A model generated the notes under the pieces. It was not told the origin of the DNA. It saw only the letters and a list, made by a program, of their open reading frames with translations, and made no database searches. Positions 6,825 to 64,000 of a stretch of DNA of 64,000 bases are shown here, one piece after another (the first letter of the stretch is position 1; each line of letters opens with the position of its first letter). A program made the position numbers and the translations under genes. The DNA comes from Pedosphaera sp. (GTDB lineage Bacteria; Verrucomicrobiota; Verrucomicrobiia; Limisphaerales; SIBH01), in the NCBI GenBank assembly GCA_031414955.1, contig JANOQV010000184.1, forward strand, positions 126,105-190,104. Direction: 5' to 3'.

Positions 6825-7796
6825 ATGTCAGCACCCAAAGCTAATTTCACCCAAGCCGTGCGCGAACGCGTCGCGGAAGTCGTCGTCGGCCAGGATGTCG
6901 TCGTGGAGCGCATGATGATTGCGCTGCTCACGGGCGGGCATCTACTCCTGCTCGGCGTGCCGGGCACGGCCAAGACGCTGCTCGTGAACGCGGTCGCCAA
7001 GGCCGTCGATCTCAAGTTCAGTCGCGTGCAGTTCACCATTGATATGCTGCCGAGCGACATTCTCGGCTCGGAAATTTTGGACCAGACGGCGGGCACCTTC
7101 CGCGTCCACAAGGGGCCGGTGTTCACGAATCTCCTGCTCGCGGATGAAATCAACCGCGCCGCGCCCAAGGTGCAGAGCGCGCTGCTCGAAGCCATGCAGG
7201 AGCGCAAGGTCAGCATCGGCAACAACAGCCATCCGCTGCCCGTGCCGTTCCTCGTCATCGCCACGCAGAATCCCATCGAGCAGGCCGGCACGTTCGAGTT
7301 GCCCGAGGCGCAGCTCGACCGCTTCATGCTTTGCCATCGCCTGAACTACCCGACCTCCGAGCAGGAGGAGGAAGTGCTGCGCCGCCAGCTCAAGATGGGC
7401 CTCAAGCGCACCGAAGGCGGCGCGATGCCGAAGACGGCCTTTGACATGATTTCGCAGGAAGCGGTCTGTCACCTGAGCGAACTCGTCGGCGCGATGGAGT
7501 CGGTGCAGAAGGTTCACGTCAGCGATGTGTTCATGAAACACTGCGTCGAGTTCGTGCGGCTGACGCGCGCGCATCCGGCCATTGAACTCGGCTGCTCGCC
7601 GCGCGCCGGACTGGCCATCGTGCAAGCCGCGCGCGCCCGCGCCTTTATCCACGACCGCGACTACGTGGTGCCGGAAGATTTGTTCCAGCTCGCCGAAGAC
7701 GTGGTGCTCCACCGCATCCGCCTGAGCTACGAAGCGCTGGCCGAAGGCAAGAAGCCCGCGGCGGTGCTGGAGGAGATGTTGAAGAAGTTGGGGTGA
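6825..7796 (+). CDS. MoxR-family AAA+ ATPase
   Basis: GHLLLLGVPGTAKT, RVQFT.DMLPSDI, LADEINRA.PKVQSALLEAMQE, ATQNPIEQAGT..LPEAQLDRF, SPRA. Confidence 0.95.
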   Translation: MSAPKANFTQAVRERVAEVVVGQDVVVERMMIALLTGGHLLLLGVPGTAKTLLVNAVAKAVDLKFSRVQFTIDMLPSDILGSEILDQTAGTFRVHKGPVFTNLLLADEINRAAPKVQSALLEAMQERKVSIGNNSHPLPVPFLVIATQNPIEQAGTFELPEAQLDRFMLCHRLNYPTSEQEEEVLRRQLKMGLKRTEGGAMPKTAFDMISQEAVCHLSELVGAMESVQKVHVSDVFMKHCVEFVRLTRAHPAIELGCSPRAGLAIVQAARARAFIHDRDYVVPEDLFQLAEDVVLHRIRLSYEALAEGKKPAAVLEEMLKKLG

Positions 7797-7824
7797 AGAA
7801 CCGCGAATGGACACGAATTCAGAA

Positions 7825-8059
7825 CGGAGCGCCGCCGTCCCCGGCGGCTTGGGACGGGTGAAAACATTGACGGCTGAATCAAACCAGAGATGAACGCGAG
7901 CAGTAACTTGAGCATCGTAAGCCAGCGAAGACGCTGGCGCTCCGGAGCGCCGCCGTCCCGGCGGCTTTCGGCAAACGAATAGCTTAAAGGCTGAATCAAA
8001 CCAGTGATGAGCACAGGCAGGAAATCCAACGCGCAAAGCCGGCGGGCCGCCGGCGCTCC
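7825..8059. repeat. Two tandem REP doublets (REPIN-like, class A, ~118 bp each)
   Basis: GGAGCGCCGCCGTCC(C)CGGCGGCT ... GGCTGAATCAAACCAG ... AGCC(G/A)GCG..CGC(C/T)GGCGCTCC at 7825-7944, and a diverged copy at 7943-8059. Confidence 0.85.
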
Positions 8060-8813
8060 TGCCCGTCGTTCCACACCGCCTTACAATCCCGGCCTGCAAA
8101 AACTTGTTGAAGGCAAACAGGCATGGACCGTACCGCTGGACGATGACGCCAAGGCCAAGGGCTTTCTCGGCTGGCATCAGCGCGGTTATGTGCCGCACTA
8201 CGATGCGCCTGGGCTGACGCAAATCGTCACGATTCGACTGGCCGACTCGCTGCCTGCCAGTCGCCGGGGCGAATGGGAGCATTTGTTGAGCATCGAAGAC
8301 GACCGCCAGCGTCGTCGCCGTTTGGAGGAATATCTGGATCGCGGCCTGGGCGAATGCTGGCTCGGACGGCCCGAAATCGCGACGCTGGCCGAGTCCGCGC
8401 TGCGCCACTTTGATGGCGAACGCTACGGCTTGGGCGCATGGGTGGTGATGCCGAATCACCTGCACCTGCTCGTGGATGTCTGGGATGTGCCCCTGTCCAA
8501 GTTGATTGCAGGTTGGAAGAGCTTCATCGCGCACGAAGCCAATCAGGTTTTGCATCGAACCGGAGAATTTTGGCAGCGCGAATATCTCGACACGGTAATC
8601 CGGGATGAGACGCACCGGCGGACGGCGGTGAAATATATCGAGAACAATCCGGTGAAAGCGGGTTTTGTCCGCGAGGCGAAGGAATGGAATTGGAGCAGCG
8701 CGCGCCATCGGGATGATTACGGGAACTTGCCGCCTGTGCCCGCAAAAGGAGCGTCCGCAGAACGGAGCGCCGCCGTCCCGTCGGCTTTGGACGAACGAAA
8801 AGTCGAGGGCTGA
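8004..8813 (+). mobile_element. REP-associated tyrosine transposase (RAYT, HUH/Y1 family)
   Basis: WHQRGYVPHYD, VTIRLADSLP, HUH motif WVVMPNHLHLL, WKS, FWQREYLD..IRDE, catalytic YIENNPVKAG, W.WSS; flanked by REP doublets. Confidence 0.9.
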
Positions 8814-8880
8814 ATCAAACCAGAGATGAACGCGCGCAGTGATTTGAACATCGTAAGCCGGCGAGGACGCCGGCGCTCCG
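8763..8880. repeat. REP doublet class A (copy 3)
   Basis: Same termini and core (GGCTGAATCAAACCAGAGATGAAC) as 7825-7944. Confidence 0.9.
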
Positions 8881-8889
8881 GCGCGGAGA

Positions 8890-8986
8890 CGCAACCCTTT
8901 CAGGGTTGGGAAAATCCGGGAACGAACACCCAGGGTAGTCGCTGCGCGCCAACCCTGGGCTGGAGGACGGAACGCCGTTGGCGTTC
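8890..8986. repeat. Multi-hairpin palindromic repeat (AACCC.TTCAGGGTT / CCCAGGG..CCCTGGG / AACGCCGTTGGCGTT type)
   Basis: Three short palindromes in a row; a related arrangement occurs at 15660-15730. Confidence 0.6.
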
Positions 8987-9010
8987 AACTGGAATGAATC
9001 AACAAGAACC

Positions 9011-10435
9011 ATGAAAACAGACAAGGGCCAAACGATTCCGCAGTGTTTCATGTGCCAAACGTCGGTCACAAATCCCAAAGCGATTTTCGAATTGAACGTT
9101 TTTGCTGTGGTTGGAAATAAATTTGTTCGATATGGCTATGGGATAGGCGGCACCAGACCGCGTGAAGGAGAGCATTCAATTTTTACGCCGGTCGGCAGGT
9201 CTAGCATCGTCGGAGGGTGTTGCAAAACTTGCACGATCAAGTGTCAGGAAGAGTGGTTGGCCAAATGCGGGAAATCAAAGAAGGAGACTGGCAGATTCTT
9301 TATTGTGTTTCTCTGTGTAGCCTTGATCGGCGTCGTCTGCTTTCCACTGGTCAGCAGACTTCATTTAGCGAGCGCATGGCACATCTTACCGATTGCCGTT
9401 GCCGGCCTTGGCGCATTAGGTGCGCTTGGCGTTTTGATGCAAGCGCACGAGCACCGCGCAAAGGCCAGGAAAGGATTCTCGATCGAGACGTGCTTCACAA
9501 ACTCAGAATCTTTCAAAAAAGAGGCCACAGCCATAGCAACTTCCATCGATGTTTCGAGAGTGCGATTCAAGTTTGGAAACCCATCAGCTCTCGGCCCCTT
9601 GCTCCTAGAAGTGAAACAGATGGAGGCCTTCGCTGCGAAGGAGAATAATCTGTTGTTACTAACCGATGTTGACATTCTTTCCAATCTCACAGCCTGTGAT
9701 TTCTATGAAGATCGGTATTGGTATCTAACATCTGCCGTGTCAGGGGAATCACTTTTAGGATTCGATACGGAGGGGAATCCCAGCGGCTTCAAGCGGATTT
9801 ACCCGAACATCCCCCCAAAGATGGTAGAAGTGAAAAACATCCGATTCGCAGCTGATAAAAATGCGAGCGTCGCCTGTTTTTTTGCCGAAATCTCAGGCTT
9901 ATCAGACGTTGAAGAGCAAGAACTCGAACCAAAGCCTCCAAAAGAATTTGAATGTGTGGGCCAAGGCGTTGTGGTTTGTAGCGAAAAGACAGTTGTCTTA
10001 AAATCCCCGGGTAGTTTAGCCCACCTGCGACTTCCGGATATTGTTCGACTCGAACTTTCACTTGCCAAAAAGAGCGGTGGACGGGTGATCGCATCTTTCG
10101 TAGGCGGAGTGATTGGCTTCTTTATTGGGTTTTGCGCTGCTATTGTTGCGTTTCTTAATTCGCGACAGGTCATTGCGGCGGAGAAACTTTTGCTGATCAC
10201 TTTCGTTTTGGGGCCAGGACTCGGTGCAATTACAGCGCAGGCTTTCGTTTCAAAGAAGAAACCTGATTCCGGCTTGCTCGTTCTCGCTTTCATCCTGTCG
10301 GACGGCACTCGTCACGCGGTGTGCCTGGAACCTAAAATGGTAACCAAGGCTCGCGACGTTCTAACGTCAGCAGGACTTTCAGTTATCGACGAAACAGCAA
10401 CGGCAGTTGCTTCAACCAACCTTCCTCGAAGCTGA
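9011..10435 (+). CDS. Hypothetical membrane protein, low-GC, with N-terminal Cys pairs
   Basis: Long ORF with visibly AT-richer codon usage, CFMC and CCKTC motifs, about 4 hydrophobic segments. Confidence 0.7.
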   Translation: MKTDKGQTIPQCFMCQTSVTNPKAIFELNVFAVVGNKFVRYGYGIGGTRPREGEHSIFTPVGRSSIVGGCCKTCTIKCQEEWLAKCGKSKKETGRFFIVFLCVALIGVVCFPLVSRLHLASAWHILPIAVAGLGALGALGVLMQAHEHRAKARKGFSIETCFTNSESFKKEATAIATSIDVSRVRFKFGNPSALGPLLLEVKQMEAFAAKENNLLLLTDVDILSNLTACDFYEDRYWYLTSAVSGESLLGFDTEGNPSGFKRIYPNIPPKMVEVKNIRFAADKNASVACFFAEISGLSDVEEQELEPKPPKEFECVGQGVVVCSEKTVVLKSPGSLAHLRLPDIVRLELSLAKKSGGRVIASFVGGVIGFFIGFCAAIVAFLNSRQVIAAEKLLLITFVLGPGLGAITAQAFVSKKKPDSGLLVLAFILSDGTRHAVCLEPKMVTKARDVLTSAGLSVIDETATAVASTNLPRS

Positions 10436-10496
10436 TGTCGGGATCCTTAAACATTTTGGGGCTTTGTTGGCGCTTGGATTTTGATTTTGGGAATTC

Positions 10497-10694
10497 ATGA
10501 ACCGCACCGCCCATCTCGACCACGACCCGCTCGACGCGCGGCAGTTCGAGCTGGCCGTGCGCCGGCTGGCCAATGCGTTGAGCTACGGGCAGGAAAGCTC
10601 GCCGTTCCTCGGCGCGATCGTTTTGGAGGAGCGCCGCCGTCCCGGCGGCTTTGGACGAGCGAATAAATTAACGGCTGAATCAAACCAGAGATGA
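10497..10694 (+). pseudogene. Truncated duplicate of the DUF58 gene 5' end (40 codons) running into a REP doublet
   Basis: [40 protein letters not shown] is identical at protein level to 10811-10930. Confidence 0.85.
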
Positions 10695-10745
10695 ACGTGA
10701 GCAGCAATTCGCGCATCGTAAGCCGGCGAGGACGCCGGCGCTCCG
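10628..10745. repeat. REP doublet class A (copy 4)
   Basis: GGAGCGCCGCCGTCCCGGCGGCT...TGAATCAAACCAGAGATGAAC...AGCCGGCGAGGACGCCGGCGCTCC. Confidence 0.9.
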
Positions 10746-10810
10746 GCACGTTGCATGCGTTCCCCAGTGTGTCGTCCGTTGAAGTTTGGATGTTTCCCTG
10801 AATTCCGATC

Positions 10811-11668
10811 ATGAACCGCACCGCCCATCTCGACCACGATCCGCTCGACGCGCGGCAGTTCGAGCTGGCGGTGCGCCGGCTGGCCAACGCGTTGAGCTAC
10901 GGGCAGGAAAGCTCGCCGTTCCTCGGCGCGGGCATCGAGTATGTGCAGTCGCGCCCCTACCAGTCCGGCGACCCGGTGAAGTTCATCGACTGGCGCGTGA
11001 CGGCGCGCACGGGAAAATTTCACGTCAAGGAATACGAGGCGCCCAAGCAGATGCCGGTCTATCTGCTCGTGGACACGTCGGCGTCGATGTGCGTCAGCTC
11101 GCAGCCGTTGAGCAAATACGCCTGGGCGGTGCAAATCGCCGGCGGCCTCGCGCTGGCGGCGATTGACCACATGAATCCCGTGGGCGTGCTGACCGTGGGC
11201 GAGCGCGACCTGCATCACAAGCCGACGCTGGCGCGCAGTTCGGTGATGCAATGGATGCACGCGCTGCGCCGCTATCATTTCGCCGAGGGCACGACGTTGG
11301 GCCGGCGCGTGCGCGAATTGGTGCCGCGCGTCGAGCAGCGCTGCCTGTTCGTGGTGCTGAGCGACCTGCACGACCCGGACGCGATTCCCGCCATCAAGCT
11401 TATGGCGCAGGATCACGATTGCGTGGTGCTGCATCTCGAAGACCCGGCGGAGCGCGGGCGTCTCGGCGGCGGCATCTACCGCGCGGTCGAAGCGGAGACG
11501 GGGCGCGAGTTCGTGGCGCACGGGCGCAGCCGGTGGTTCGATCAGGAAGAGACGCACAAGCTCTCGCGCGCTGGTGTTGATTATCTGCGCCTGCCGACGA
11601 ATGAACCGATGCTGCCACGCCTGCGGCATCTCTTCAAAAATCGCGGCGGCACGAGGAGGGGGGCGTGA
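10811..11668 (+). CDS. DUF58 domain protein (MoxR partner)
   Basis: G.GIEY..SRPYQSGD.VKFIDWRVTAR, VKEYE, LLVDTSASM, VLSD. Confidence 0.92.
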   Translation: MNRTAHLDHDPLDARQFELAVRRLANALSYGQESSPFLGAGIEYVQSRPYQSGDPVKFIDWRVTARTGKFHVKEYEAPKQMPVYLLVDTSASMCVSSQPLSKYAWAVQIAGGLALAAIDHMNPVGVLTVGERDLHHKPTLARSSVMQWMHALRRYHFAEGTTLGRRVRELVPRVEQRCLFVVLSDLHDPDAIPAIKLMAQDHDCVVLHLEDPAERGRLGGGIYRAVEAETGREFVAHGRSRWFDQEETHKLSRAGVDYLRLPTNEPMLPRLRHLFKNRGGTRRGA

Positions 11669-12690
11669 AAAAAAAGCCCCAAGCTCCAAGCTCCAACCTC
11701 CAGGGAAGATCCAAGCTTCAAGCACCCAGGGGATGGCGCGTCGCTTGGGCAGGGAGCGCCGAGCATCGCTCGGCTTTGGGCATAGCCACGCACGTTCGTG
11801 CCGAGCGATGCTCGGCGCTCCGTTCTTCAGTGTGGTGCCGATTGGATCTTGGAACTTGGTGTTTCTCTGGTGCTTGGAGCTTGGTGCTTGGTGCTTTTCT
11901 CCTGTCCGCTTCAGCGATCTGGGCGGCGACCAACCCAACCAACACCGCTTCACGCAACATCGGCATCGAGGGCAAGGTCACCGTGGCCCTGCCCAAGCCG
12001 GACTACAAACCGCGTCCGCTCGACGACCGCACGGAATTAATTCTGCGCATCGAGAGCGTGAAGCCGTTGTCCAACGGCCAGCACAACTACGAGTTCTTCT
12101 ACATGGGCCTCGAACAGGGCGCGTACAAGCTCGCGGACTTTCTCATTCGCCCGGACGGCACGCGGCCTGATGAACTGGGCGATCTGCGCATCCAGGTGCG
12201 CGCGATGCTGCCCGAGGATCACGACGGCAAGCTCAACACCTACGTGCCACGACTGTTTCCGTTCGTCGGCGGCTATCGCGCGGCGCTGGTCATCCTCTGC
12301 GTGCTCTGGGTGGGCGGCATCGCGGCTTACATTATCCTCACACGGAAAAAGCGCGTGGTGGCCGCGCCGGTGGCGGTGGTGCCCGAGCCATCGTTCGCCG
12401 AGCGGCTGCGTCCGCTGGTGGAAGCGGCAGCGGAAGGAAAACTCTCCGTTCAAGACCAGGCCAGCCTGGAGCGGCTGCTCATGGGCTACTGGCGGGAGAA
12501 GCTGAACTTCTCCGGTCTAGGCGTGGCCGAGGCGCTGGCGCGGCTCAAAGCCCACGCTGAAGCGGGCGACTTGCTGCGCGCGCTGGAGCGCTGGCTGCAC
12601 CAGCCGGGCGGAGCGACGAAGGAAGAGGTGGCGGTGCTGTTACAGCCGTATCGGCAGGTGTCGGCGGCGGTCCAAGGAGGGGCAGAGTGA
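11665..12690 (+). CDS. Hypothetical exported/single-TM protein of the MoxR-vWA operon; N-terminus is repeat-derived
   Basis: GTGA overlap with the DUF58 stop, AGGAGG upstream, signal-like segment, TM near the C-terminal third. Confidence 0.75.
   Translation: MKKKPQAPSSNLQGRSKLQAPRGWRVAWAGSAEHRSALGIATHVRAERCSALRSSVWCRLDLGTWCFSGAWSLVLGAFLLSASAIWAATNPTNTASRNIGIEGKVTVALPKPDYKPRPLDDRTELILRIESVKPLSNGQHNYEFFYMGLEQGAYKLADFLIRPDGTRPDELGDLRIQVRAMLPEDHDGKLNTYVPRLFPFVGGYRAALVILCVLWVGGIAAYIILTRKKRVVAAPVAVVPEPSFAERLRPLVEAAAEGKLSVQDQASLERLLMGYWREKLNFSGLGVAEALARLKAHAEAGDLLRALERWLHQPGGATKEEVAVLLQPYRQVSAAVQGGAE
11672..11898. repeat. Heptamer-repeat inverted hairpin ((CCAAGCT/A)n ... (TGCTTGG)n) with a nested REP doublet class B
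   Basis: Left arm 11672-11728 is an imperfect reverse complement of 11842-11898; inner perfect 22-bp inverted repeat at 11753-11774 / 11800-11821. Confidence 0.88.
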
Positions 12691-12848
12691 AGATCCAAGA
12701 TCCAAGATCCAAGATCCAGAGAAGCGCCAAGCTCCAAACACCAACCGACGGCGGGCAGCACCGCGACACGAAAGCACGTTGGATCTTGGTGTTTGGACCT
12801 TATCTGGATCTTGGATCTTGGATCTTGGATCTTTTCCCCCGCGCATGA
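12687..12848 (+). other. 53-aa bridging mini-ORF across an (AAGATCC)n heptamer hairpin
   Basis: GTG 12687 overlaps the upstream TGA, with AAGGAGG at 12674-12680; its TGA 12846-12848 overlaps the vWA ATG 12845. Hairpin arms 12690-12744 / 12779-12833 have a 31-bp perfect outer stem. Confidence 0.6.
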
Positions 12849-13780
12849 GCTTCCACCATCCAGTCTTCCTCTGGCTGCTCGCCCTGCCCTTCGCCTGGGC
12901 TTTCTGGCAGTGGACGCGGCGTGGACATCTGGTGGTCGTGCCATTCGACCACGGGCCGCAACGCGAAGGCCGCCGGCTGCGCGTGCTGGTGAATTGCGCG
13001 CAGACGCTGCCCGCGCTGTTGCTCGCCATCGCAGTTCTTATTCTCGCCGGCCCGCGCCGGCCCGCGCCGCCGGAGAACGAGCGCATCCTGAACAACATCA
13101 TCATCTGCCTCGATGTGTCCGGCTCGATGACGGCGCCCTTCGGCAGCTATCGCGGCCGCGCGGCCAAGACGCGCTTCGACGGTGCCATGGAAGCGGCCAA
13201 GGACTTCTGTGAATACCGCAAGGGTGACGCGTTCGGCCTGACCATCTTCGGCTCGGAGTATTTGCACTGGTTCCCGCCGACCAAAGAGTTGTCCGCGATT
13301 CGCAATGCGCTGCCGTTCGTACGTCCGCAGAACATGCCGCCGTGGTTTGGCGGCACGCTCATCGCGCGGGCACTGCGTGGTTGCAAGGACCGCCTCGCGC
13401 GCACCAAGGAAGGCGACCGTGCCATTATCCTGATCACGGACGGCGGCAGCGCGGACTTCGGGAATGGCGGCGACCGGCAGATCGCGCAGGAACTGGCCGA
13501 GCACAAGATCCGCGTCTTCACGATTTTGATCGGCAATGACCTGTTCGGCACGGGCGGTATTTACACCATCGGCGCGCTCACGAGCGGCAAGGTCTTTCAG
13601 GCGGGAGACCCCGGCGCTTTGGAAACGATCTTCCGCGAGATCGATCAGATGCAGAAAGCGCAGTTCAAGCAGACCACCTCCGACTGGGTGGATTATTACA
13701 GGCCGCTGGCTTGGGCGGGACTGGGCATCGCTGCAATCTGGGGATTGTCGCTGTTGGGACTGAGATACACACCGTGGTGA
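12845..13780 (+). CDS. vWA domain protein (BatA-like)
   Basis: MSFHHPVFLWLLALP N-terminal TM, MIDAS DVSGSM, GT, LITDG, C-terminal TM. Confidence 0.88.
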   Translation: MSFHHPVFLWLLALPFAWAFWQWTRRGHLVVVPFDHGPQREGRRLRVLVNCAQTLPALLLAIAVLILAGPRRPAPPENERILNNIIICLDVSGSMTAPFGSYRGRAAKTRFDGAMEAAKDFCEYRKGDAFGLTIFGSEYLHWFPPTKELSAIRNALPFVRPQNMPPWFGGTLIARALRGCKDRLARTKEGDRAIILITDGGSADFGNGGDRQIAQELAEHKIRVFTILIGNDLFGTGGIYTIGALTSGKVFQAGDPGALETIFREIDQMQKAQFKQTTSDWVDYYRPLAWAGLGIAAIWGLSLLGLRYTPW

Positions 13781-13784
13781 AAAC

Positions 13785-14789
13785 ATGAGCCGGGAAGAAA
13801 TCATCGCCATCGCCTCGTGGGCCGCTTGCGGCGCCGTAGCGCTGGGAATTTTCGCGGAATGGCTGCACGCGCGGCGCCTTCGCCGGCTGGCGCGGCTGGC
13901 CTTCGGTCCGGAACAGGAACCGCGGCTCTGGACGAAGCTCGTGCCGCCGTTGCGCGTACTTGGCCTGGCCGGCGTAGTGTGGGCGCTCGTCGTGTTGATG
14001 GGTTTCGAGGGTTCGAGCCGCAGCCGCGAACGCACCGCCAAGGCCACGCGTCATCTCATGGTGATGCTCGATGTCTCACCCAGCATGTTGTTGAAGGACG
14101 GCGGCGAGCACGCTTCGCAGACGCGCGCGGCCCGCGCCGCGGAATTGCTCCGCTCCGTGATGGAGCGCGCGCCGAGCGCCGAGGTGAAGATCACGATGGC
14201 GTGCTTCTACACGGATTCCATGCTGCTGGTGAAGGAGTGCTCCGACCGCGAGGTGATCTGGAATTTTGCTGACAATTTACCGCTCTACATCGCCTATCGT
14301 CCGGGTAAAACTGACATGGTGAAATCCCTGAACACCGCCGGCGAGTTCGTGAAGGACTTCCCGCGCAAGAGCACCACGCTGCTCGTGCTCTCGGACGGCG
14401 ACACGGTGCCGGACTCAGGACTGAAGCCGATGCCCTCATCGGTCACGGACATCATCTTCGCCGGCGTGGGAGATCCGATGCGCGGGACGTTCATCGACGG
14501 CCATCTTTCGCGGCAGGACAACGGATCGCTCTCGCAGCTCGCGCGGCGGTTGGGCGGGAATTACCACAACGGCAACGTGAAACATGTGCCGAGCGAAATG
14601 CTGCGCCACCTGCTCGCGCCGGATGAGACGAGCGAGAAATTCAAAGTGAACCTGCGTGTGCTCGCCATCATCATTCTGGGTGCGAGCGCATCGCTGCTGT
14701 GCCTGCTGCCGTTGTTGCTGGAATACTTCGGCAGCGCGTGGAAGCCGGTGGTGCGTGCGGTGAAGCAGGAAGAAGAGGTGGCCGCGTGA
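13785..14789 (+). CDS. vWA domain protein (BatB-like)
   Basis: Two N-terminal TMs, DVSPSM, VLSDGD, GVGD, C-terminal TM. Confidence 0.85.
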   Translation: MSREEIIAIASWAACGAVALGIFAEWLHARRLRRLARLAFGPEQEPRLWTKLVPPLRVLGLAGVVWALVVLMGFEGSSRSRERTAKATRHLMVMLDVSPSMLLKDGGEHASQTRAARAAELLRSVMERAPSAEVKITMACFYTDSMLLVKECSDREVIWNFADNLPLYIAYRPGKTDMVKSLNTAGEFVKDFPRKSTTLLVLSDGDTVPDSGLKPMPSSVTDIIFAGVGDPMRGTFIDGHLSRQDNGSLSQLARRLGGNYHNGNVKHVPSEMLRHLLAPDETSEKFKVNLRVLAIIILGASASLLCLLPLLLEYFGSAWKPVVRAVKQEEEVAA

Positions 14790-14917
14790 ACTGGCGAAAC
14801 ATCAAATACCAAACTTCAAACATCAAAGAAACAGCAAGCACCGAGCAGCAATCAGCTGGCGGCGGTGGACGTTCGGTTGGTGTTTGGAGTTTGTCCTCGA
14901 AAGGAGTTCTCCAATGA
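14786..14917 (+). other. 43-aa bridging mini-ORF across a degenerate (CAAACAT/CAAACTT) heptamer hairpin
   Basis: GTG 14786 overlaps the upstream TGA; TGA 14915-14917 overlaps ATG 14914. Confidence 0.55.
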
Positions 14918-15654
14918 AAAAACTGTTCTTGTTCTTCTGGCTCCTGCTGCCGCTGCCCGTGATCGTCTGGCACTACGGGCCGGGGCAAAAATGGTTCGCG
15001 CGCGATCAGGCGCACACGCTCATCCAGCGCGCGCAGCAATTTGAGTCAGAACGGAAATGGAGCGAAGCCGAGTCGCTCTATCGCGAGGCCGCCGGCAAGG
15101 TGCGCAACGAGGACCCCAAGCTTAAGACCCAGCTCGACATTGCCCTCGTACGGCAGCGTTACCGGCAAGGGGGTGCGGTCGAATCCATCGACATGATCGA
15201 CAGCGTGATCAGCGACGCGAAATTTCACCAGCAACCGGCGGAGATTCAACGCGAAGCACGCGAACTGGCCGGACGAATCCATTATCACGCCGCCTGGGTC
15301 ATGCGGCTCGAAGGCGCGCAAAAGGATCTCTGGATGGAAGAGGCGGAGTTGTCGCGGCAGAACTTTCGTTTGCTCTCCGAGGAAACGTTATCCGCCGGCA
15401 AGGCCAGCTACTCGCAGCTTCAGCAGACGAACCTGGAAAGCTCGGTGCGGTTGCAACGCATGGGCCTGGTGGATTTGATGGCGAAGCCCCTCCCCGAAGA
15501 GGGCCGCACGATGGTGGGCCAGGGCCTGACCGAACAGATGGGGCGCCGCCGCGGGCAGCGCGGCAACCGCCCGGGCATCGGTCCAAACGAAGACGCGCGC
15601 GAGCCGGGCAAGGGCGCAGGCACCTCGCGCTTCGAGCCGGGGAAGGGATCGTGA
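14914..15654 (+). CDS. Hypothetical helical/TPR-like protein (BatC position)
   Basis: AAGGAG RBS, N-terminal hydrophobic anchor, helical repeats, Gly/charged C-tail. Confidence 0.7.
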   Translation: MKKLFLFFWLLLPLPVIVWHYGPGQKWFARDQAHTLIQRAQQFESERKWSEAESLYREAAGKVRNEDPKLKTQLDIALVRQRYRQGGAVESIDMIDSVISDAKFHQQPAEIQREARELAGRIHYHAAWVMRLEGAQKDLWMEEAELSRQNFRLLSEETLSAGKASYSQLQQTNLESSVRLQRMGLVDLMAKPLPEEGRTMVGQGLTEQMGRRRGQRGNRPGIGPNEDAREPGKGAGTSRFEPGKGS

Positions 15655-15659
15655 GCACG

Positions 15660-15730
15660 AGCGTTGAAAGCGCGGGATTCGACGGCCCAGGGGCTTGCCC
15701 TGGGCTGACAAATTCCGCCCCGTTGGGGCT
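15660..15730. repeat. Palindromic repeat (GCCCAGGG..CCCTGGGC; GCCCCGTTGGGGC)
   Basis: Two hairpins, similar to 8890-8986. Confidence 0.55.
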
Positions 15731-15765
15731 GGGATGGATGGCTTAAAAGATTTTTTAGAGAACAC

Positions 15766-18700
15766 ATGAACACAAAACTCTTCATCACCGTCGGTGCGGT
15801 TTTGCTCTACCTGCCGGTCACGCGCGTTGCGGCCCAGACCACCGCCGCTCCGGCGACGGTGCAGATTGCCGTGCCAGTGACGGCGTTGCGAGCGGTCACG
15901 ACTGCCGCGCCGATCGCCGCCGCCAAGAAAGCCACGAACTCCTCCGAGGCCATGCCTCCGGAACTGACCAACGCCATCCACGTCATGAGCTTCGATCGCT
16001 CCTCAGAGTCGCTCTTCGAGGCGGTGAAGTCGCAGCAATCCGGCGGCAAGCTCTCCGAGTCCGAAAAGTTCCGCCTCGCGCTCCTGCTCGGTGACTGGAA
16101 GTCGATCGGCGTGGCCTTGAAGACCCTGCCCGAGGAAGACGCGAACACGGCCTATGCCCGGCTGCTCGAATCGTTGACCACCAACTCTCAGTCGGCCTCG
16201 CAATTTTTCCAGCAGCAGGCCGCGCGTTCGGCTTCCTCGATCACATACGACGAGAATGGCAACCCGATGGCGGCAGCCGCGCCCGGGCCGAGCACGCGGC
16301 GAGGGCTGTTCCTGAGCGATGACTTTTACGCGGTACTCGATGCGGCTCCGGCCGATCTCACGGCGTCGCACATCCCCAGCGTGACCTCGCTGGTGCGGAC
16401 GGCGATCGGCAACGGCGGCAAGCAGGATTTCCTGGTGCGCTTACAGAAGGGACTCAAGGGCATCGGCGGCACCAACGCGCCCGGCAAGAAGCTCGCCTCG
16501 CAACTGCTCTCCAGCGTCGGCTGGATGAGCGACGCCGGGCCGTATCTGCCGCTCGATCGTTCCGAATGGGACAGCGCGGACACGCTCACGCTCGTTCTGA
16601 CCATGGAGTTTTTCACCCAGACCGGCGTGGAGAAACGCGACGAACGCCAGCTCAAGAAAGCCGCCGAGATGTGCGCCTTCATGATGCAGACGAGCCGCTT
16701 CGGATCGAGCGACCGCGGCGTCTTCAAGCAGGCCACGGATCGCTTCGTGAAGCTGCTGCCCGCGCTGGAGCCGGCGGATGCCGAGCAGCTCATCCGGGAA
16801 AATTTCCTGACCCAGACGCCGCTGATGATCGATCTGATCCTCGCGCTCGGCGACGCCGGTCATCAGACGCTGAGGAGCAGCGACCTGCGCGCGCGTGAGC
16901 AAAGCCTGGCCACGCAGAACATCTTGATGCGCGTGCTGGAGGGCAAGAAGGCCGCGCTGCCCGAGGCGGTGAACGTGCTGGTGATGAACTGGCTGGGCGA
17001 GGCCGAGCAAACCTATCGCTCTGGTGGGCGCAACCAGGAGCAGAACATGATCGACTCGGACTATTACATCTACCGCTCCGTGGCGACCACTGCGCGCCCG
17101 AAGACTCTCGCCCCGGACGTGATCCTCTCGCGCGCGCCGTCCGCGACGCTCACCAAACGGTTGAACCAGGGGCTGGCGCAGCGCGTGAACCTGACCACGC
17201 TGAAAGTCACGCTGTTGAACCCCACCGAGATGACGCTCGAGACGCTCAAGAGCTATCTCAAGGAACATCCCGGCCAGGAGAAGGAACTCTGCCAGGACTA
17301 TCTCGCGGCCTGGGTGAAGAAGCGCATGGTGCAGCCGGAAGACCCGAACATCCTGCGCATGAGGCTGCTCGGCTACAACGTGGCCAAGCCGCCGACGAGC
17401 GGCATTCCGCTCACCCGCCTGCGCCAGAACCAGAACGTGGCCGAGTTCAAAACGATGCTCGCGGCGTTGCGCGCGATGTCGCCGGAGCCGATCGAGCCGG
17501 GCACGGTCATTCAAAGCTTCATGACCATCCACAGCGGCGCGGAGGTTTACCGGCTCGAAGACATCGAGGCCATCTTCGGCCCGCCGGAAAAGATGAGCCG
17601 CGCCGAGCTGATGAATCTCGTCACCGGCATGAGGACCAAGCTGCGCGAGCAATGGCGCGACCAGCAGGCCCAGCAGGATGCCGGCTCGAACCGCACCGAG
17701 ACGGAGACGAAGGATGAAGTTTCACGCGGCTACCGCACCGCGCTCGAACTGGTGAAGCGCGGTCTCAAGCCGGAAGACGCCGAGTGGAAGGAGTTCATCG
17801 TGCGCGGCCAGCTTTTCTTCGACGCTTCGGAGTATGAGTTTTCCCGCCAGATCAAGCTGGGCGATTACGTGAACCTGCGCGACGAGGCGTTCGGCAGCTA
17901 CAAGAAGGCCTCGGAGATTTACGCCGGCAAGGTGCCCGAGATGCCCAAGGGCCAGTGGACGATGGAGCCTTACCAGATGTGGTTCTTCGTCATGCTGGGC
18001 GCGAGCGACCTCTCGCAGCTCACCCGAGCGGCGGCGCGATCCGACCCGGGGCTGAAATTGATTGGCGATGCCATGCGCGCCTTGCCCGGCGAAGCGGCTG
18101 AAGGTCACCTGACCAAGTTCGGCGAGATGCTCGGCAGCGTGCTCGGCCAGGTGCCGGCGAACATGAAGCAGAAATTCCTCGGCGCCGGCTTGCAGGTGGT
18201 CGGCGAGAGTCATCCCAGCGCCAAGGTCGCGAGCGCCGCGCTCGGCAATTACAAGGAGCTGGTCGATGAAGTGCAGTTGCGCCTGGCCGTGGATGGGCCG
18301 ACGCGCGTCGGCCACACCCAGCCGTTCGGCGCGTTCGTGAGCATCGAGCACACGCGGCAGCTCGCGCGCGAGAGCGGCGGCTTCGGCAAGTATCTCCAGA
18401 ACCTCCAGTCGCAGCAGCGCAACATCATCTACTACGGCAACGCCGGGCAGAAGGCGATCAACTACCGCGACGAGTTCACCAAGAACATCCACGCCGCGCT
18501 GGACGAAACCTTCGAGGTCGCGAGCATCACGTTCCAGGATGCCGGCGTGAAGGAGATCGATCTGCCGCGCGAAGGCTGGCAGGAGACGCCCATGGCCTAC
18601 CTCGTGTTGCGCGCCAAGGATGCCGCCGTGGATCGTGTGCCGTCCTTCCAGTTGGACATGGATTTCTCGGACACGGCCGGGCAGGTCGTGCTGCCCATCC

Positions 18701-19479
18701 GCTCGCAGGTGCAGCCCATCGACGCCAAGGACAACGAGCCGGCGTTGCGTCCGTGCGAGGATCTCGCGCTGAACTTGACCATGGACGAGCGCGAGTGGCG
18801 CAAGGAAGGCAAGGTCGTGGTGGAGATCACCGCCAAGGGCCGGGGCGTGATTCCCTCCCAGCCGCAGATGTTCGACGTGGCGCGCGAAGGCTTCGACGTG
18901 GAGGTCACGGACAACGGCCTGTCGGTCACGCAGTTCATCAGCGACGGGAAAAAGAAAACCGCGCAGGCGGATCGCGGCTGGCAGATCACTTACAAGCGGA
19001 AGAAGGATTTGCGCGGCGACGTGACGCTGAAGTTTCCCGCCCTCAAGTCCGGCATCACGACGACCAACGTGGAGTACAAGCATTACCAGGACGCTGATCT
19101 CGTGGCGGTGGACGCGAAGCAGGCGCTGGCCGGCGTGACGCTGCGCAGCGGCGGCAGTTCGGCGGCGCGAACCGTGGCCATTACAGTGGGCCTGGCCGTG
19201 CTGGCCGTGGGCGCGTTTGTGTTCCTGCGCAAACGTCCGCAGCAAACCAAAGCCATCGGCGGTCTTACCGTGCCGGAACAAATCACGCCCTTCTCCGTGG
19301 TCGCGTTCCTGCGCCGCATCCAGCGTGAATACGCCGCCCGGTTGGACGAAGGTTCGCGCGCCGCCCTCGGCACGCAGATTCGGGAGATCGAGTCCGCCTT
19401 CTTCAGCGGCGCGACTCCGGCGGGGAATTCTCCGGACCTTGAAGCTGTGGCGCGCAAGTGGATGCAATCGGTGGGGTGA
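15766..19479 (+). CDS. Large exported protein with C-terminal TM (BatD position)
   Basis: 1237-aa ORF with strong host codon bias, signal peptide, C-terminal anchor (AITVGLAVLAVGAFVFL). Confidence 0.8.
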   Translation: MNTKLFITVGAVLLYLPVTRVAAQTTAAPATVQIAVPVTALRAVTTAAPIAAAKKATNSSEAMPPELTNAIHVMSFDRSSESLFEAVKSQQSGGKLSESEKFRLALLLGDWKSIGVALKTLPEEDANTAYARLLESLTTNSQSASQFFQQQAARSASSITYDENGNPMAAAAPGPSTRRGLFLSDDFYAVLDAAPADLTASHIPSVTSLVRTAIGNGGKQDFLVRLQKGLKGIGGTNAPGKKLASQLLSSVGWMSDAGPYLPLDRSEWDSADTLTLVLTMEFFTQTGVEKRDERQLKKAAEMCAFMMQTSRFGSSDRGVFKQATDRFVKLLPALEPADAEQLIRENFLTQTPLMIDLILALGDAGHQTLRSSDLRAREQSLATQNILMRVLEGKKAALPEAVNVLVMNWLGEAEQTYRSGGRNQEQNMIDSDYYIYRSVATTARPKTLAPDVILSRAPSATLTKRLNQGLAQRVNLTTLKVTLLNPTEMTLETLKSYLKEHPGQEKELCQDYLAAWVKKRMVQPEDPNILRMRLLGYNVAKPPTSGIPLTRLRQNQNVAEFKTMLAALRAMSPEPIEPGTVIQSFMTIHSGAEVYRLEDIEAIFGPPEKMSRAELMNLVTGMRTKLREQWRDQQAQQDAGSNRTETETKDEVSRGYRTALELVKRGLKPEDAEWKEFIVRGQLFFDASEYEFSRQIKLGDYVNLRDEAFGSYKKASEIYAGKVPEMPKGQWTMEPYQMWFFVMLGASDLSQLTRAAARSDPGLKLIGDAMRALPGEAAEGHLTKFGEMLGSVLGQVPANMKQKFLGAGLQVVGESHPSAKVASAALGNYKELVDEVQLRLAVDGPTRVGHTQPFGAFVSIEHTRQLARESGGFGKYLQNLQSQQRNIIYYGNAGQKAINYRDEFTKNIHAALDETFEVASITFQDAGVKEIDLPREGWQETPMAYLVLRAKDAAVDRVPSFQLDMDFSDTAGQVVLPIRSQVQPIDAKDNEPALRPCEDLALNLTMDEREWRKEGKVVVEITAKGRGVIPSQPQMFDVAREGFDVEVTDNGLSVTQFISDGKKKTAQADRGWQITYKRKKDLRGDVTLKFPALKSGITTTNVEYKHYQDADLVAVDAKQALAGVTLRSGGSSAARTVAITVGLAVLAVGAFVFLRKRPQQTKAIGGLTVPEQITPFSVVAFLRRIQREYAARLDEGSRAALGTQIREIESAFFSGATPAGNSPDLEAVARKWMQSVG

Positions 19480-19485
19480 ATCCGT

Positions 19486-19596
19486 CGGCGCGCGGACTTT
19501 CCAGTCCGCAGCAACGCGGGGCGACCGGAGACCTCGGCGTGGACGGGCACGGCCTGACTTTTGAGGGTTGCTGCGGGCTGGAAAGCCCGCGCGCCG
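19486..19596. repeat. REP doublet class C
   Basis: GGCGCGCGGACTTTCCAGTCCGCAGCAAC ... GTTGCTGCGGGCTGGAAAGCCCGCGCGCC inverted pair, each half a hairpin. Confidence 0.85.
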
Positions 19597-19647
19597 TTGC
19601 ATGTTGCGCTCGCATCTCACCCTGGTTTCTCCCACTCTCCCTCCACC

Positions 19648-20427
19648 ATGCGGCTCAAGGATAAATCACTCGTCATCATCGGCGGCACGACCGGGCTGGG
19701 ACTCTCGGCGGCCCGGGCCTTCGTCGCGGAGGGCGCACGCGTCGTGGTGATTGGGCGAAACCCGGCCACCGTCGAGGCCGCGGGAAAGGAACTCGGATCC
19801 CAATCGCTCGCCTTGCAGGGCGACGCCAGCGACCCCCAATGCGCGCCCGTGGCGATTCAGAAGGCGCTGGCCGAGTTCGGCGCTTTTCACGGCCTCTACC
19901 ATGTCGCCGGTGGCAGCGGGCGAAAGTTCGGCGACGGACCTTTGCACGAAATCTCCGATGAGGGTTGGAGCCACACCCTGAACGAAAACCTCACCTCCCT
20001 CTTCAACTCCAACCGCGCGGCGGTGCAGCAATTCCTCAAGCAGGGCACGGGCGGCACGGTTTTGAACATGGGTTCAGTGCTGGGTTTCTCGCCCTCGCCG
20101 AAGTTCTTCGCCACCCACGCCTACGCCACGGCCAAGGCCGCCATCATCGGGTTGACCACGGCGGCGGCGGCGCACTACGCCCCGCAGAACATCCGCTTCA
20201 ATGTCCTCGCCCCGGCCCTTGTGGCCACGCCGATGTCCCAGCTCGCGCAGGGCGACGAGGCCATCATGCAATTCATCCGCGCCAAGCAACCGCTTGACGG
20301 CGGGCGCATCGGACAGCCGGAGGACCTCGACTCGGCGGCGGTGTTCTTCATGAGCGATGAATCCAAGTTCGCCACCGGCCAGGTGCTGGCCATCGACGGC
20401 GGCTGGTCGGTGAGCGAGGGACATTGA
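19648..20427 (+). CDS. SDR family oxidoreductase
   Basis: GGTTGLG, YATAK, N.LAP, IGQPED, TGQVLAIDGG. Confidence 0.93.
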   Translation: MRLKDKSLVIIGGTTGLGLSAARAFVAEGARVVVIGRNPATVEAAGKELGSQSLALQGDASDPQCAPVAIQKALAEFGAFHGLYHVAGGSGRKFGDGPLHEISDEGWSHTLNENLTSLFNSNRAAVQQFLKQGTGGTVLNMGSVLGFSPSPKFFATHAYATAKAAIIGLTTAAAAHYAPQNIRFNVLAPALVATPMSQLAQGDEAIMQFIRAKQPLDGGRIGQPEDLDSAAVFFMSDESKFATGQVLAIDGGWSVSEGH

Positions 20428-30773: not shown

Positions 30774-30949
30774 GAGCCGGTCTGAAAAGTCGCCTGGAGG
30801 CAAAGGTCGCCGGTCCCGGAGTGCGCCCGTCCTCGGGCGCAGCAACGTGCGAAAGTCTGGGGAGGTGGGGTTTTCCAACGCGCCCGGCGTCAGCGCACTG
30901 CTGCGGCCGAGGACGGGCGCACTCCGCCAGCGAGTTTTCAGACCGGCTC
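30774..30949. mobile_element. MITE-like element (15-bp TIR, TGA target duplication) containing a REP doublet class D
   Basis: GAGCCGGTCTGAAAA 30774-30788 / TTTTCAGACCGGCTC 30935-30949; TGA on both flanks; inner GGAGTGCGCCCGTCCTCGGGCGCAGCA...TGCTGCGGCCGAGGACGGGCGCACTCC at 30818-30925. Confidence 0.8.
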
Positions 30950-31004
30950 TGAGCCTGTCGGCCGAGACTTGGCGCGCGGGCCGGAGGCTGCTATTCCTCC
31001 GCCG

Positions 31005-41880: not shown

Positions 41881-42783
41881 ATGGCATTTCTTGAATTAAA
41901 AAACGTCTCCAAGAGCTTCGGCGGTGCGACCGTGCTGCGGGACATCAACCTCTCCATCGAGAAGGGCGAGTTCGTGGCCATCGTCGGCTACTCGGGCGCG
42001 GGCAAGACCACGCTGATGTCGCTGCTCGCCGGCCTGCTCAAGTCGGACACCGGCACGGTGCTGCTCGAAGGAAAAGAAATGGCCGGGCCGGGACCGGATC
42101 GCGGCATCGTGTTTCAGAATTATTCCCTGCTGCCGTGGCTGACGGTGTTCGAGAACATCAAGCTCGCGGTGGACCAGGTGTTCGCGGAGAAGTCCGAAGC
42201 GGAGCGCGTGACGCACACGGAGAAATTCATCGAGATGGTCAACCTCACGCCCGCGCGGGAGAAACGTCCGAGCGAACTTTCCGGCGGAATGCGCCAGCGC
42301 GTGAGCGTGGCCCGTGCGCTCGCCATGTTGCCAAAGGTGCTGCTCTGCGACGAACCACTCAGCGCGCTCGACGCTCTGACGCGCGCCAATTTGCAGGACG
42401 AGATCGCGCGCATCCGCTCGCTGCACGACCAGACCATTGTACTGATCACCAACGACCCGGACGAGGCCATCCTGCTCGCCGACCGCGTGATTCCGCTCGC
42501 GGCGGGACCGAACGCAACGCTCGGGCCGTCATTCCATGTGGACATTCCGCGCCCGCGCGACCGCAAGGGTCTGAACCACGATGACCATTTCAAAACGCTC
42601 CGCCGCGACATCATTGACTGGCTGCTGGCCTCGAAAGGCGAACGCAAGGTAGCCGTGACGAAGAAACTGATCCTGCCCGACATCGAGCCGGAAGATTTGT
42701 CCATCCCGCGCGGCGCCTTCAACCGCCGCAAGACGGCGCTGCGCCGCAGTGAGGTAAAAAGCGAAACGGTGGAGGTCGAATGA
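41881..42783 (+). CDS. Nitrate ABC transporter ATP-binding protein
   Basis: [30 protein letters not shown]-loop His appears as N (LITNDPDEA). Confidence 0.9.
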
Positions 42784-45290
42784 GCGCGTACGTCGAACTT
42801 TCCAACATCTCAAAGATTTACCCGACGCCGAAAGGCTCGGCGATCATCGTCAAAAATTTCAACCTCTCGATCAAAAAAGGCGAGTTCATCACGCTCATCG
42901 GGCACTCGGGCTGCGGCAAGTCCACGGTGCTCTCGATGCTTGCGGGTCTGAACGACATCACGGGCGGCGGCATCATTCTCGCCGGCAAGGAACTCGTGGG
43001 TGCGGGGCCGGATCGCGGCGTGGTTTTTCAGTCGCCGTGTTTGCTGCCGTGGTACACGGCGTTTGAAAACGTGATGCTCGGCGTGGACCAAGTCTTCTTC
43101 ACGGCGACAAAACAGGAGCGCAAACAGATCGTGGAATACTATCTCACGGTCGTGGGCCTGGCCGACGCGATGCACAAGAAGCCGGGCGAACTTTCGCAGG
43201 GGATGCGCCAGCGCGTCGGCATTGCGCGCGCCTTCGCGCTCTCGCCGAAGATGCTGCTGCTCGACGAGCCGTTCGGGATGCTGGATTCGCTCACGCGCTT
43301 CGAACTGCAACAGGTGCTCATCGAACTCTGGCGCAAGGACAAGAAGACTGCGCTCATGGTCACGCACGATGTGGACGAGGCGCTGTTCCTCTCGGATCGA
43401 ATCGTGATGATGACTAACGGTCCCGAGGCCGAAGTAGGCGACGTGCTGGAAGTGAATTTTCCGCGCCCGCGTGAGCGCAAGGCGGTGATGGAGCATCCCG
43501 ATTATTACAAACTGCGCGAGCACCTGATCGAGTTTCTCGAAGTTCATGCTTATCGCGGCAAGAAGCACCAGGACCTCGCACCCGCTGCTCCAGTGCCACC
43601 GATGGCACCGGGACCGCAGAACAACGTGCCGCGTTTGGAGCACGCTTCCGCCGGGCCATCAATCGTGAGCAAGCCGAGGATGACAGAACCGTTTCCGTAC
43701 CAAACCAAAACACGGCTAGACTTGGACAAATCTGGATTCACCCTGCTTTCTTCCATTGGCAAAGATTCAAACCATCAACTCATGAAACAAAAGACAACCC
43801 AACTCATCACTCGTCTTGTATTCGCCATCTCGGCGGCGCTGGCGCTGAACCAATCCGACTTGGCGGCGCAAACTAATCCTCCTGCCGCTCCGCCGCCGGT
43901 GCCCAGCGCCGGGTTGGTCAATGACTTCCTGCGCCAGCAATCCGATGTCTTCAAGTCTTGGGATGTCGGCGGACAAGTCCGCGCCCGCTACGACATGAAG
44001 CAGAACTTCGGCACGCCGGGCCTGGCGGGCGCGATTGATTTTCGCGACAAGGGCGGCAATCCGCACAACGATTACCTGCTGCTGCGCGAGAAAGTTCACA
44101 TCGGCTACACCCAGCCCTGGTTCGGCTTCTATGTGCAAGGCCGCGACAGCTCGGTGAGCGGTGATGAGCGCGACCCGAATCCCGACGCCGACTCCTTCGA
44201 TCTGCACCAGGGCTACCTCAAGCTGGGGAATGCGAAGCAGTTTCCGCTCACACTCCAGGCTGGACGCCAGGAGCTTAGTTATGGCGACGAGCGGCTCATC
44301 GGTTCGGCCGACTGGTTGAACATTCCACGCACGTTTGACGCGCTGAAGCTGCGCGTTGAAGGCAAGCCCGGATGGATTGACGCCTTCGTGAGCCGGCCCA
44401 TTCTTGCGGACAACGGCAGCTACAATGGCGACAACGAGTACGAGACCTTTTCCGGTGTTTATGCCTCCACCAAGACGATCATTCCCAAGCAGGAGACGCA
44501 GCTCTACTTCCTTTCGCGCAATGTCAACGTCCGATCGCCCTTCGCTCACGAGAAGGACACGCCCCAAGCCGGCGGACCCACCGCGCGGGACATCTACACC
44601 CTGGGGCTGCGCGTCAAGTCGCTGCCCGGCCAGTTCCGCGGCTTTGATTACGGCGCTGAAATCATGGGCCAGTTCGGACGCTACAAGGAGGGCGGCGCGA
44701 CACTGGCGGCGGCGAAATCGAAGAAGAGTCAGGAGCACGAAGCCTTCGCGGCCTTTGTGGGCGGCGGCTATACATGGACGAATGTCAGCTTCGCGCCGCG
44801 CCTGGGCGTGGAGTACAATTACGCCAGCGGCGACAGCGATCCCAACGACGACCAGCACGAGACGTTCGACAATCTTCATCCCACCAACCACAAGTTCTAC
44901 GGAATGGCCGATTTCGTCTCGTTGCAGAACATCCACAACCTGCGCTTCATGAGCTCGGTCAATCCGTTTCAGAACTTCACCCTCTCGCTCGAGTACTACC
45001 TCTTCTGGCTGGCCGACACTTCGGACAACTTCTACACCGTGACCGGCGCGCGGCGCGGCGATACCATGGCCACTCCGGGCACGGGCTACGGCATCAATGA
45101 GAACTACCACAACTTCGTCGGGTCCGAACTAGACCTCGTGGCCACCTACAGGGTGAGGCCGTGGGCCAGCGCGCAGGTGGGCTATGCGCACTTCTTCACC
45201 GGCGACTACATCAACCAGTCCCTCTCCAGTCCGAACTTCGGATCGCGAGACGCGGATTTTCTCTACCTGCAGATGACGGTGAATTTTTAA
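42780..45290 (+). CDS. Nitrate ABC ATP-binding protein read in-frame into an alginate-export-family outer-membrane protein
   Basis: [25 protein letters not shown] in aa 1-260; no stop before the porin region. Confidence 0.8.
43782..45290 (+). CDS. Alginate export family outer-membrane beta-barrel (probable independent start)
   Basis: ATG 43782 followed by a signal peptide; [14 protein letters not shown]...[25 protein letters not shown]-terminal F. Confidence 0.8.
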
Positions 45291-63830: not shown

Positions 63831-63877
63831 TCCGCGTGGGCCGTCTCCAGAACGGGGCCGTAACTTCACCCTGTCTA

Positions 63878-64000
63878 GAGCCGGTCTGAAAATTCGGCCC
63901 CGGAGTGCGCCCGTCCTCGGGCGCAGCAAGGCGCGAACAGCAGCGGGTATGGGTTTTTCAACACGCTCCAAGTCTTCACGTTGCTGCGCCCGAGGACGGG
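63878..64000. mobile_element. Second copy of the MITE/REP class D composite (truncated by window end)
   Basis: GAGCCGGTCTGAAAA at 63878, then GGAGTGCGCCCGTCCTCGGGCGCAGCA ... TTGCTGCGCCCGAGGACGGG. Confidence 0.8.

Follow-up and report, generated by a model that had tools for sequence, protein, structure and literature searches.

The MoxR-vWA operon described here lies in a 64,000-nucleotide window of a Pedosphaera sp. genome (GenBank assembly GCA_031414955.1, contig JANOQV010000184.1, positions 126,105 to 190,104 of the forward strand), and all coordinates given without further specification refer to this window. The operon is assigned to the Verrucomicrobia, and its host bacteria are soil and water dwellers. 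Several of its gene junctions harbour repeat hairpins, some of which are traversed by a short open reading frame (ORF) that opens at the upstream stop codon and closes on or beside the next start codon, termed a relay frame in the following. Relay-bridged inserts of this kind form a real pattern, which is genome-wide as well as order-wide.

The operon genes and the frames at their junctions lie on the plus strand. The operon opens with gene A (6825-7796), which encodes a MoxR AAA+ ATPase (Pfam AAA_3 and AAA_lid_2; start as placed by the gene caller), followed by the DUF58 gene B (10811-11668; PF01882), gene C (11665-12690; 341 aa including a fused leader), the vWA genes D (12845-13780; BatA-like by family profile matches) and E (13785-14789), gene F (14914-15654), gene G (15766-19479; 1237 aa) and a gene for a short-chain dehydrogenase (SDR; 19648-20427; family profile match). 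Genes F and G matched no family in Pfam or NCBIfam. As the initial annotation had noted, all seven core genes (A to G) end in GTGA, and the coordinates of these ends are confirmed. The seven-of-seven agreement is a post hoc pattern, to be read against a genome-wide GTGA rate of 17.7%: the motif is the ancestral overlap at three junctions, at 13777 its G stems from a conserved tryptophan codon, and at the other three junctions it varies among relatives.

Two junctions display the relay arrangement in full. Between genes C and D, a heptamer hairpin with 56-nt arms (12690-12833; -102 kcal/mol) extends its foot to about 11 nt before the start of D; the region 12665-12860 folds with z = -10.2, and the mean unpaired probability across the 25 nt preceding the start is 0.14. 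A 53-aa relay frame (12687-12848), with AAGGAGG located 6 nt upstream, opens at the GTGA of gene C and ends in an ATGA overlap with the vWA start at 12845. Between genes E and F, a 43-aa frame (14786-14917) runs from GTGA to an ATGA on the start at 14914 and crosses a degenerate heptamer hairpin. Both relays had been proposed from the sequence of the window; their coordinates hold, and in most relatives the respective sites are plain RTGA overlaps. The E-F insert (14790-14913) is a decayed heptamer element, and the folding of the region 14765-14930 (z = -1.7) is equalled by 13 of 200 shuffled sequences. At the B-C junction, the frame opening at 11665 is fused directly to gene C, as had been noted. 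The in-frame leader of the resulting 341-aa protein contains a heptamer hairpin (11672-11898; z = -8.6 for 11645-11920) with a nested doublet of repetitive extragenic palindromes (REPs) at about 11752-11826, and the right arm of the hairpin encodes a hydrophobic, signal-like stretch. The D-E gap of 4 nt is insert-free; a frame of 3 aa opens there at a GTG and terminates in ATGA.

Downstream of gene F, a REP-like, Acido-Lenti-1-like hairpin (15686-15745; z = -3.0 for 15640-15775) is crossed by a frame (15651-15746) that stops 19 nt before the ATG at 15766. The Rfam family Acido-Lenti-1 scores 35.7 bits at 15686-15730 versus a gathering threshold of 37, and the other Rfam matches to the inserts are merely miRNA-like hairpins far under threshold. 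Downstream of gene G, a REP-like hairpin of a separate family with 36 genomic matches (19486-19596; z = -4.5 for 19465-19670) is crossed by a frame (19476-19664) that runs 17 nt past the SDR start at 19648. The endpoints proposed for these two frames stand; a relay role is not supported, because relatives have only a loose spacer at F-G (the median is 39 nt for sites shorter than 60 nt) and because none of the orthologous loci in which gene G could be located gave an SDR match behind it.

At the A-B junction a relay is likewise not supported. The GTG at 7793 opens a frame of only 22 aa (7793-7861), which does not span the junction alone and from which no chain reaches the ATG of the following transposase gene within 20 nt. 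The junction holds about 3 kb, including a gene for a REP-associated tyrosine transposase (RAYT; 8007-8813; NF047646 at 84.9 bits with a cut-off of 80; PF01797), a low-GC gene inserted along with it that encodes a 474-aa membrane protein (9011-10435; no Pfam or NCBIfam family match), and a duplicate of the DUF58 5' end (repeat D3: 122 nt, 98% identical, 10495-10616 and 10809-10930, with a REP doublet in between). Relatives carry different inserts or none at this position. A 62-aa frame through two REP-like repeats (8826-9014), overlooked in the initial annotation, begins with an ATG 12 nt past the RAYT stop and ends in ATGA on the next start; such a chain is expected in 25% of shuffles and is not significant alone. 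Further on, three overlapping short frames of 21, 65 and 36 aa (10435-10801) form a chain found in 42% of shuffles, in which the 65-aa frame consists of the DUF58 duplicate fused to a REP and the 36-aa frame stops 9 nt before DUF58. Multi-step chains across this insert were considered as evidence and dropped, since they are common in shuffles, where longer gaps chain at rates of 0.11 to 0.55. Inserted hairpins had been noted at six junctions; those at 11672-11898, 12690-12833, 15686-15745 and 19486-19596 are significant, the E-F fold is weak, and the A-B junction contains the 3-kb insert.

These inserts had been regarded as one class of small elements, yet the window contains at least three families. 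The three heptamer inserts (B-C, C-D and E-F) are alike, as are the three REPs at the side of the RAYT gene, and the inserts 15655-15765 and 19480-19647 resemble no other insert. A fourth REP type, nested in the B-C loop, stands beside the RAYT doublet and the F-G and G-SDR types. The RAYT gene is flanked by its palindromic repeats (REP-like doublets at 7840-8062; family D1, 4 copies in the window), which is true of that family only. Other REP-like doublets of a different family are located at 30811-30950 and 63877-63959. Elsewhere in the window, a large gene at about 60000-62900 contains four internal repeats of about 805 nt (families D2, D4, D5 and D7), and two similar ABC ATPase-like segments lie 914 nt apart at 41945-43097 (D8 and D11).

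For the genome-wide analysis, genes were called with our own dicodon caller (4548 genes). The genome contains 149 paired heptamer arrays, 139 of them not longer than 450 nt. Among the latter, 82 are situated between co-oriented genes or extend out of them, 6 have divergent neighbours and 1 has convergent ones; the remaining 50 are within called genes or without neighbours. Elements with both an upstream stop and a downstream gene made up the test set of 75 (76 minus one duplicate on contig C12). A bridging frame had to start between -8 and +15 from the upstream stop and to stay open through the hairpin, and "near" endings were those from -12 to +14. By this rule 25 elements are bridged exactly, 20 nearly, 13 are fused to the downstream gene, 6 carry a frame ending elsewhere and 11 have none. 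The relay count (exact plus near) of 45 falls to 5 or 8 if 1 or 2 nt are added at the midpoint and is unchanged upon addition of 3 nt. The relay rate is 24.5% in 5550 chimeras (p = 7e-11) and 7.5% in shuffles, such that the bridging above shuffled controls anticipated for the whole genome is indeed found.

Several features concur with this frame dependence. The upstream stop is RTGA in 54 of the 75 elements versus 32% genome-wide. Where RTGA occurs at both ends, 20 of 27 gaps have the length modulo 3 that a relay requires (p = 2e-5), as do 14 of 16 in relatives; this test is independent of frame openness. If the downstream start is not part of an RTGA, the stop of the frame is still adjacent to it in 20 of 30 elements, versus 0 and 2 after shifts of +1 and +2. 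In a separate, gap-based count after RTGA, 36 of 51 heptamer hairpins are bridged versus 3 and 8 when shifted. Non-heptamer repeat hairpins behave alike (17 of 33 versus 5 and 5), whereas unstructured non-repeat gaps do not differ significantly from their shifted versions (33 of 145 versus 23 and 24). The distance between stop and arm has a median of 3 nt, that between arm and start a median of 9 nt, and many copies begin with ATGA followed by A's. A Shine-Dalgarno (SD)-like motif precedes only 271 of 2763 ATG starts (about 10%); the 3' tail of the 16S rRNA was not found in the assembly.

Relatives of the operon indicate what the junctions looked like before insertion. We mapped 38 loci with an orthologue of gene D, 4 of which (L039, L040, L051 and L054) are duplicates and were left out. 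Over all operons compared, the counts also exclude L047 (a second copy in one genome), L035 (containing N's), L038 and L081 (each almost the same as a locus that was retained) and loci lacking a start call. Empty sites at B-C, C-D and E-F are mostly RTGA overlaps; A-B and D-E show gaps of a few bases, and F-G is a loose spacer. The frame at B-C starts at -4 to +4 in the frame of gene C in 28 of 31 loci by manual count, including those in which inserts lengthen the leader to 82-120 codons. Among inserts of at least 60 nt, 7 of 9 are bridged at C-D, 6 of 7 at D-E and 3 of 4 at E-F, by relay frames of up to about 125 codons and with differing repeat families; at F-G none of 11 is bridged, although the starts of gene G are uncertain.

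The mreBCD-pbp2 and pstCAB operons, chosen for having elements in this genome and represented by the 30 best loci each, yield the same picture. Inserts of at least 60 nt are bridged at mreC-mreD (9/10), mreD-pbp2 (13/14), pstC-pstA (6/7), pstA-pstB (5/5) and pstB-pstB (2/3), while the loose mreB-mreC spacer is bridged in 3 of 19 cases. Over all operons, tight junctions are bridged in 51 of 59 and loose ones in 3 of 30 cases; by manual count without the rows of this genome, the values are 44 of 52 and 2 of 28. Junctions are filled at this length in 15 of 30 loci (mreD-pbp2) and in 11 of 29 (mreC-mreD). Empty sites are RTGA at mreC-mreD and mostly not RTGA at mreD-pbp2 or pstA-pstB. Judged by relatives, the filled junctions were overlapping or near-touching before insertion. 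Many genomes (loci L079-L108) share a conserved short stem across the mreB-mreC spacer, in which TTCGCC pairs with a GGYGAA-like motif, with extra sequence in its loop. A 23-copy miniature inverted-repeat transposable element (MITE) also carries a hairpin of this kind; in its 9 co-oriented cases it is 81-181 nt away from stops, and none of them forms a relay. Its copies (e.g., C109:4456 or C150:9893) are homogeneous and about 210 bp long, their terminal inverted repeats begin with CAGGG, and duplications of about 10 bp flank them, features that we take to be ISAs1-like.

The elements evolve rapidly while the frame is kept. A pstC-pstA insert shared with a genome of the same genus is equal in length and arms, its loop is unrelated, and the stop has moved with the frame retained. 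At mreC-mreD of two close genomes (L080 and L081), the repeat has changed in concert in every unit and on both arms, and the 15-nt difference is in frame. Loops are unique: apart from one duplicate call, no similar pairs were found across elements, and searches for their origin returned no shared loops and only short matches at chance level, save one nested REP. In about 10 of 12 fusions, judged by eye alone, the right arm encodes a hydrophobic segment with an Ala-rich motif behind it, as in a signal peptide; hydrophobicity does not differ significantly between fused leaders and relay-preceded starts (8/12 versus 18/46, p = 0.11). In fused cases such as C184 45153, C56 1504, C65 55631 and C249, the right arm seems to form the hydrophobic core of a signal peptide or to precede a prepilin cleavage motif.

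The hairpins had also been suggested as possible empty derivatives of elements encoding four-helix-bundle proteins (TIGR02436) of the intervening sequence (IVS) type. Heptamer-like arms accompany all 4 TIGR02436 genes in the genome, and of the 8 flanks of these genes 6 are bridged, one of the upstream gene calls being uncertain; this links the heptamer family to IVS-type elements. No cargo remnant was detected by tblastn in 76 empty elements (best E 0.99), and 54 loops are not coding-like (mean z -0.13), although fast loop divergence could erase a trace of cargo. The derivation is plausible but unproven.

Taken together, the hairpins are positioned at stop/start junctions, show a frame bias and depend on the type of junction. 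We consider it likely that selection preserves translational coupling across the hairpins by means of the bridging frames. Repeat hairpins of several families, chiefly heptamer-armed ones, lodge in operon junctions that were overlapping or near-touching. Since the foot of the hairpin lies a few bases before the start codon and SD motifs are few, fresh initiation downstream should be blocked. An insert would persist only where a frame opens at the upstream stop or shortly behind it, crosses the hairpin without a stop codon, and then closes on the following start or next to it, or continues into a disposable N-terminal leader. A ribosome handed onto the relay would melt the stem and terminate at the next start, which would enable expression of the next gene by reinitiation or unfolding. 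The relay peptides would be unconserved by-products, with the frame rather than the sequence under selection. That hairpins pass ribosomes on in this way had been suggested at the outset; the frame-shift, chimera, shuffle, antisense and comparative controls agree with it, and the passage of ribosomes is what we infer from sequence. Whether the same ribosome reinitiates or new ones load onto unfolded RNA is an open question in the field of coupling, according to the accessible parts of PMC12548453 and PMC7538156.

A number of points weigh against this reading. Elements reverse-complemented in place still relay in 29 of 75 cases, as expected of a palindrome that keeps its length; frame openness is therefore partly intrinsic to the heptamers. 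Under the bridging rule 17 of the 75 elements are unbridged, and the 13 fusions are no commoner than in chimeras (18%). Repeat units bearing a TGA stop gave no signal for a loss of in-frame stops (5/8 versus 15/24 intact), a comparison underpowered at 32 units. The distance windows were chosen after seeing the data, though the same rule applied to controls, and a home-made gene caller underlies all genome counts. Kin are not independent in the comparative counts, and the loose-junction control is imperfect, as only 2 of 20 long mreB-mreC spacers are heptamer-type and the starts of gene G are uncertain; for the non-independence and the mostly non-heptamer spacers, a Fisher p of 1e-12 for tight versus loose junctions is too strong. 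Finally, reinitiation is disputed in Escherichia coli, as the accessible part of PMC7538156 has it.

The intrinsic openness invites the explanation that relays are a by-product: insertion would duplicate the RTGA overlap, and heptamer arms, stop-free in most frames, would yield short ORFs without selection. Common heptamer units indeed lack stops in any frame, an antisense ORF runs through 33 of 76 elements, and the reverse-complemented elements relay as described. Duplication, however, predicts an even spread of gap lengths modulo 3 rather than 20 of 27 and 14 of 16 at the relay value; it leaves the stops beside non-RTGA starts (20/30) and the bridging of mreD-pbp2, a mostly non-RTGA site when empty, in 13 of 14 cases unexplained, and it fits poorly with the wide variation in insert lengths and units, all of which makes it very improbable. 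The relay may instead be built into a heptamer element that targets coupled junctions with its own start and frame, a design that has been put forward for the MIRUs described below, and would then result from the insertion mechanism. This agrees with the 82 of 89 classifiable elements between co-oriented genes versus 67% expected (p = 2e-8), with the short median distances and the ATGA opening of many copies, and with the bridged flanks of versions carrying four-helix cargo. Unrelated REP-like families nevertheless share the bias, lengths vary, the loops are all different and no transposase is tied to the heptamer family, such that a built-in design as the whole explanation appears improbable. 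It is compatible with selection for coupling, and both may act; the concentration at tight junctions may stem from targeting as well as from filtering.

The hairpins could also be regulatory devices of the host that adjust subunit ratios, either as sites for RNase III or as stabilisers gated by translation, while the relay keeps coupling intact. Repeated filling of the same junctions (mreD-pbp2 15/30, mreC-mreD 11/29) is in line with this, as are arms that stay paired and change units in concert while loops diverge, and four-helix IVS elements with heptamer repeats are cut by RNase III in rRNA (PMC4990558, accessible part). Yet at each junction most relatives lack an insert, and cleavage within a needed relay frame would undo the relay; we regard such a device as very improbable. 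A further reading sees in the heptamer hairpins an undescribed and widespread family that actively seeks out translationally coupled junctions, possibly aided by the four-helix-bundle proteins sometimes carried. Its members would be retained as RNA switches gated by translation: without upstream translation the hairpin would be folded and either cut or blocking, and with it the relay ribosome would melt the stem. We hold this to be rather unlikely.

On the favoured reading, the frame-specific controls indicate that coupling in an SD-poor phylum is selected strongly enough to mould dozens of mini-ORFs that annotations miss in each genome. This accounts for many spurious small proteins and unusual N-terminal leaders among annotated genes. 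The natural junctions, with graded spacing from -8 to +7 behind very stable hairpins, suit the question of reinitiation versus unfolding.

Known systems share parts of this arrangement. According to PMC12548453, mycobacterial interspersed repetitive units (MIRUs) are short repeats placed at start codons; their ORF is coupled to the following gene at -4, which supposedly makes the insertion non-polar. The elements described here share with them an internal ORF of the same orientation with -4 coupling to the gene downstream, at 12687 and 14786 in the window and exactly in 25 of 75 elements genome-wide. We take MIRUs to lack dyad symmetry, in contrast to the strong hairpins found here (z -8.6 and -10.2), and for this reason we do not file the elements as MIRUs. 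They further differ by comprising several unrelated families, by endings from -8 to +7 besides the exact -4, by leader fusions and by their occurrence in another phylum. MIRU insertion presumably occurs into a DTGA overlap with duplication; here, empty sites are RTGA at B-C, C-D, E-F and mreC-mreD and mostly not at mreD-pbp2 and pstA-pstB.

In integrons, short ORFs of attC sites and ORF-11 of attI1 run through a stem-loop and relieve a downstream block by termination-reinitiation (PMC8876359, accessible part), whereas the elements reported here sit in core chromosomal operons (mre, pst and MoxR-vWA); no integrase and no cassette array came to light, though no search aimed at them was made. REP/RAYT and GTAG/CGTC repeats abut or enter ORFs, Verrucomicrobia included (PMC3733652), akin to the palindromic doublets beside the RAYT gene at 7840-8881, while the heptamer-armed hairpins represent a separate architecture. 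In the accessible texts, the word "coupling" is absent from PMC3733652 and "translational coupling" from PMC4679880. As far as the accessible parts go, four-helix-bundle elements (TIGR02436, S23p/IVS) carry heptamer repeats (PMC4990558) and TAACTGA repeats precede start codons (PMC4679880). The likeness extends to heptamer repeats near start codons and to the arms at all 4 four-helix genes; the copies found here differ in that most of them are hairpins devoid of cargo, located at mRNA junctions and crossed by relay frames. In the literature searched, with subscription titles and supplements thinly covered, no paper was found that describes heptamer hairpins bridged in this way. The relay concept is already known from MIRUs and attC short ORFs, mainly from hairpin-free mycobacterial repeats, and its heptamer-hairpin version in the Verrucomicrobia appears to be new.

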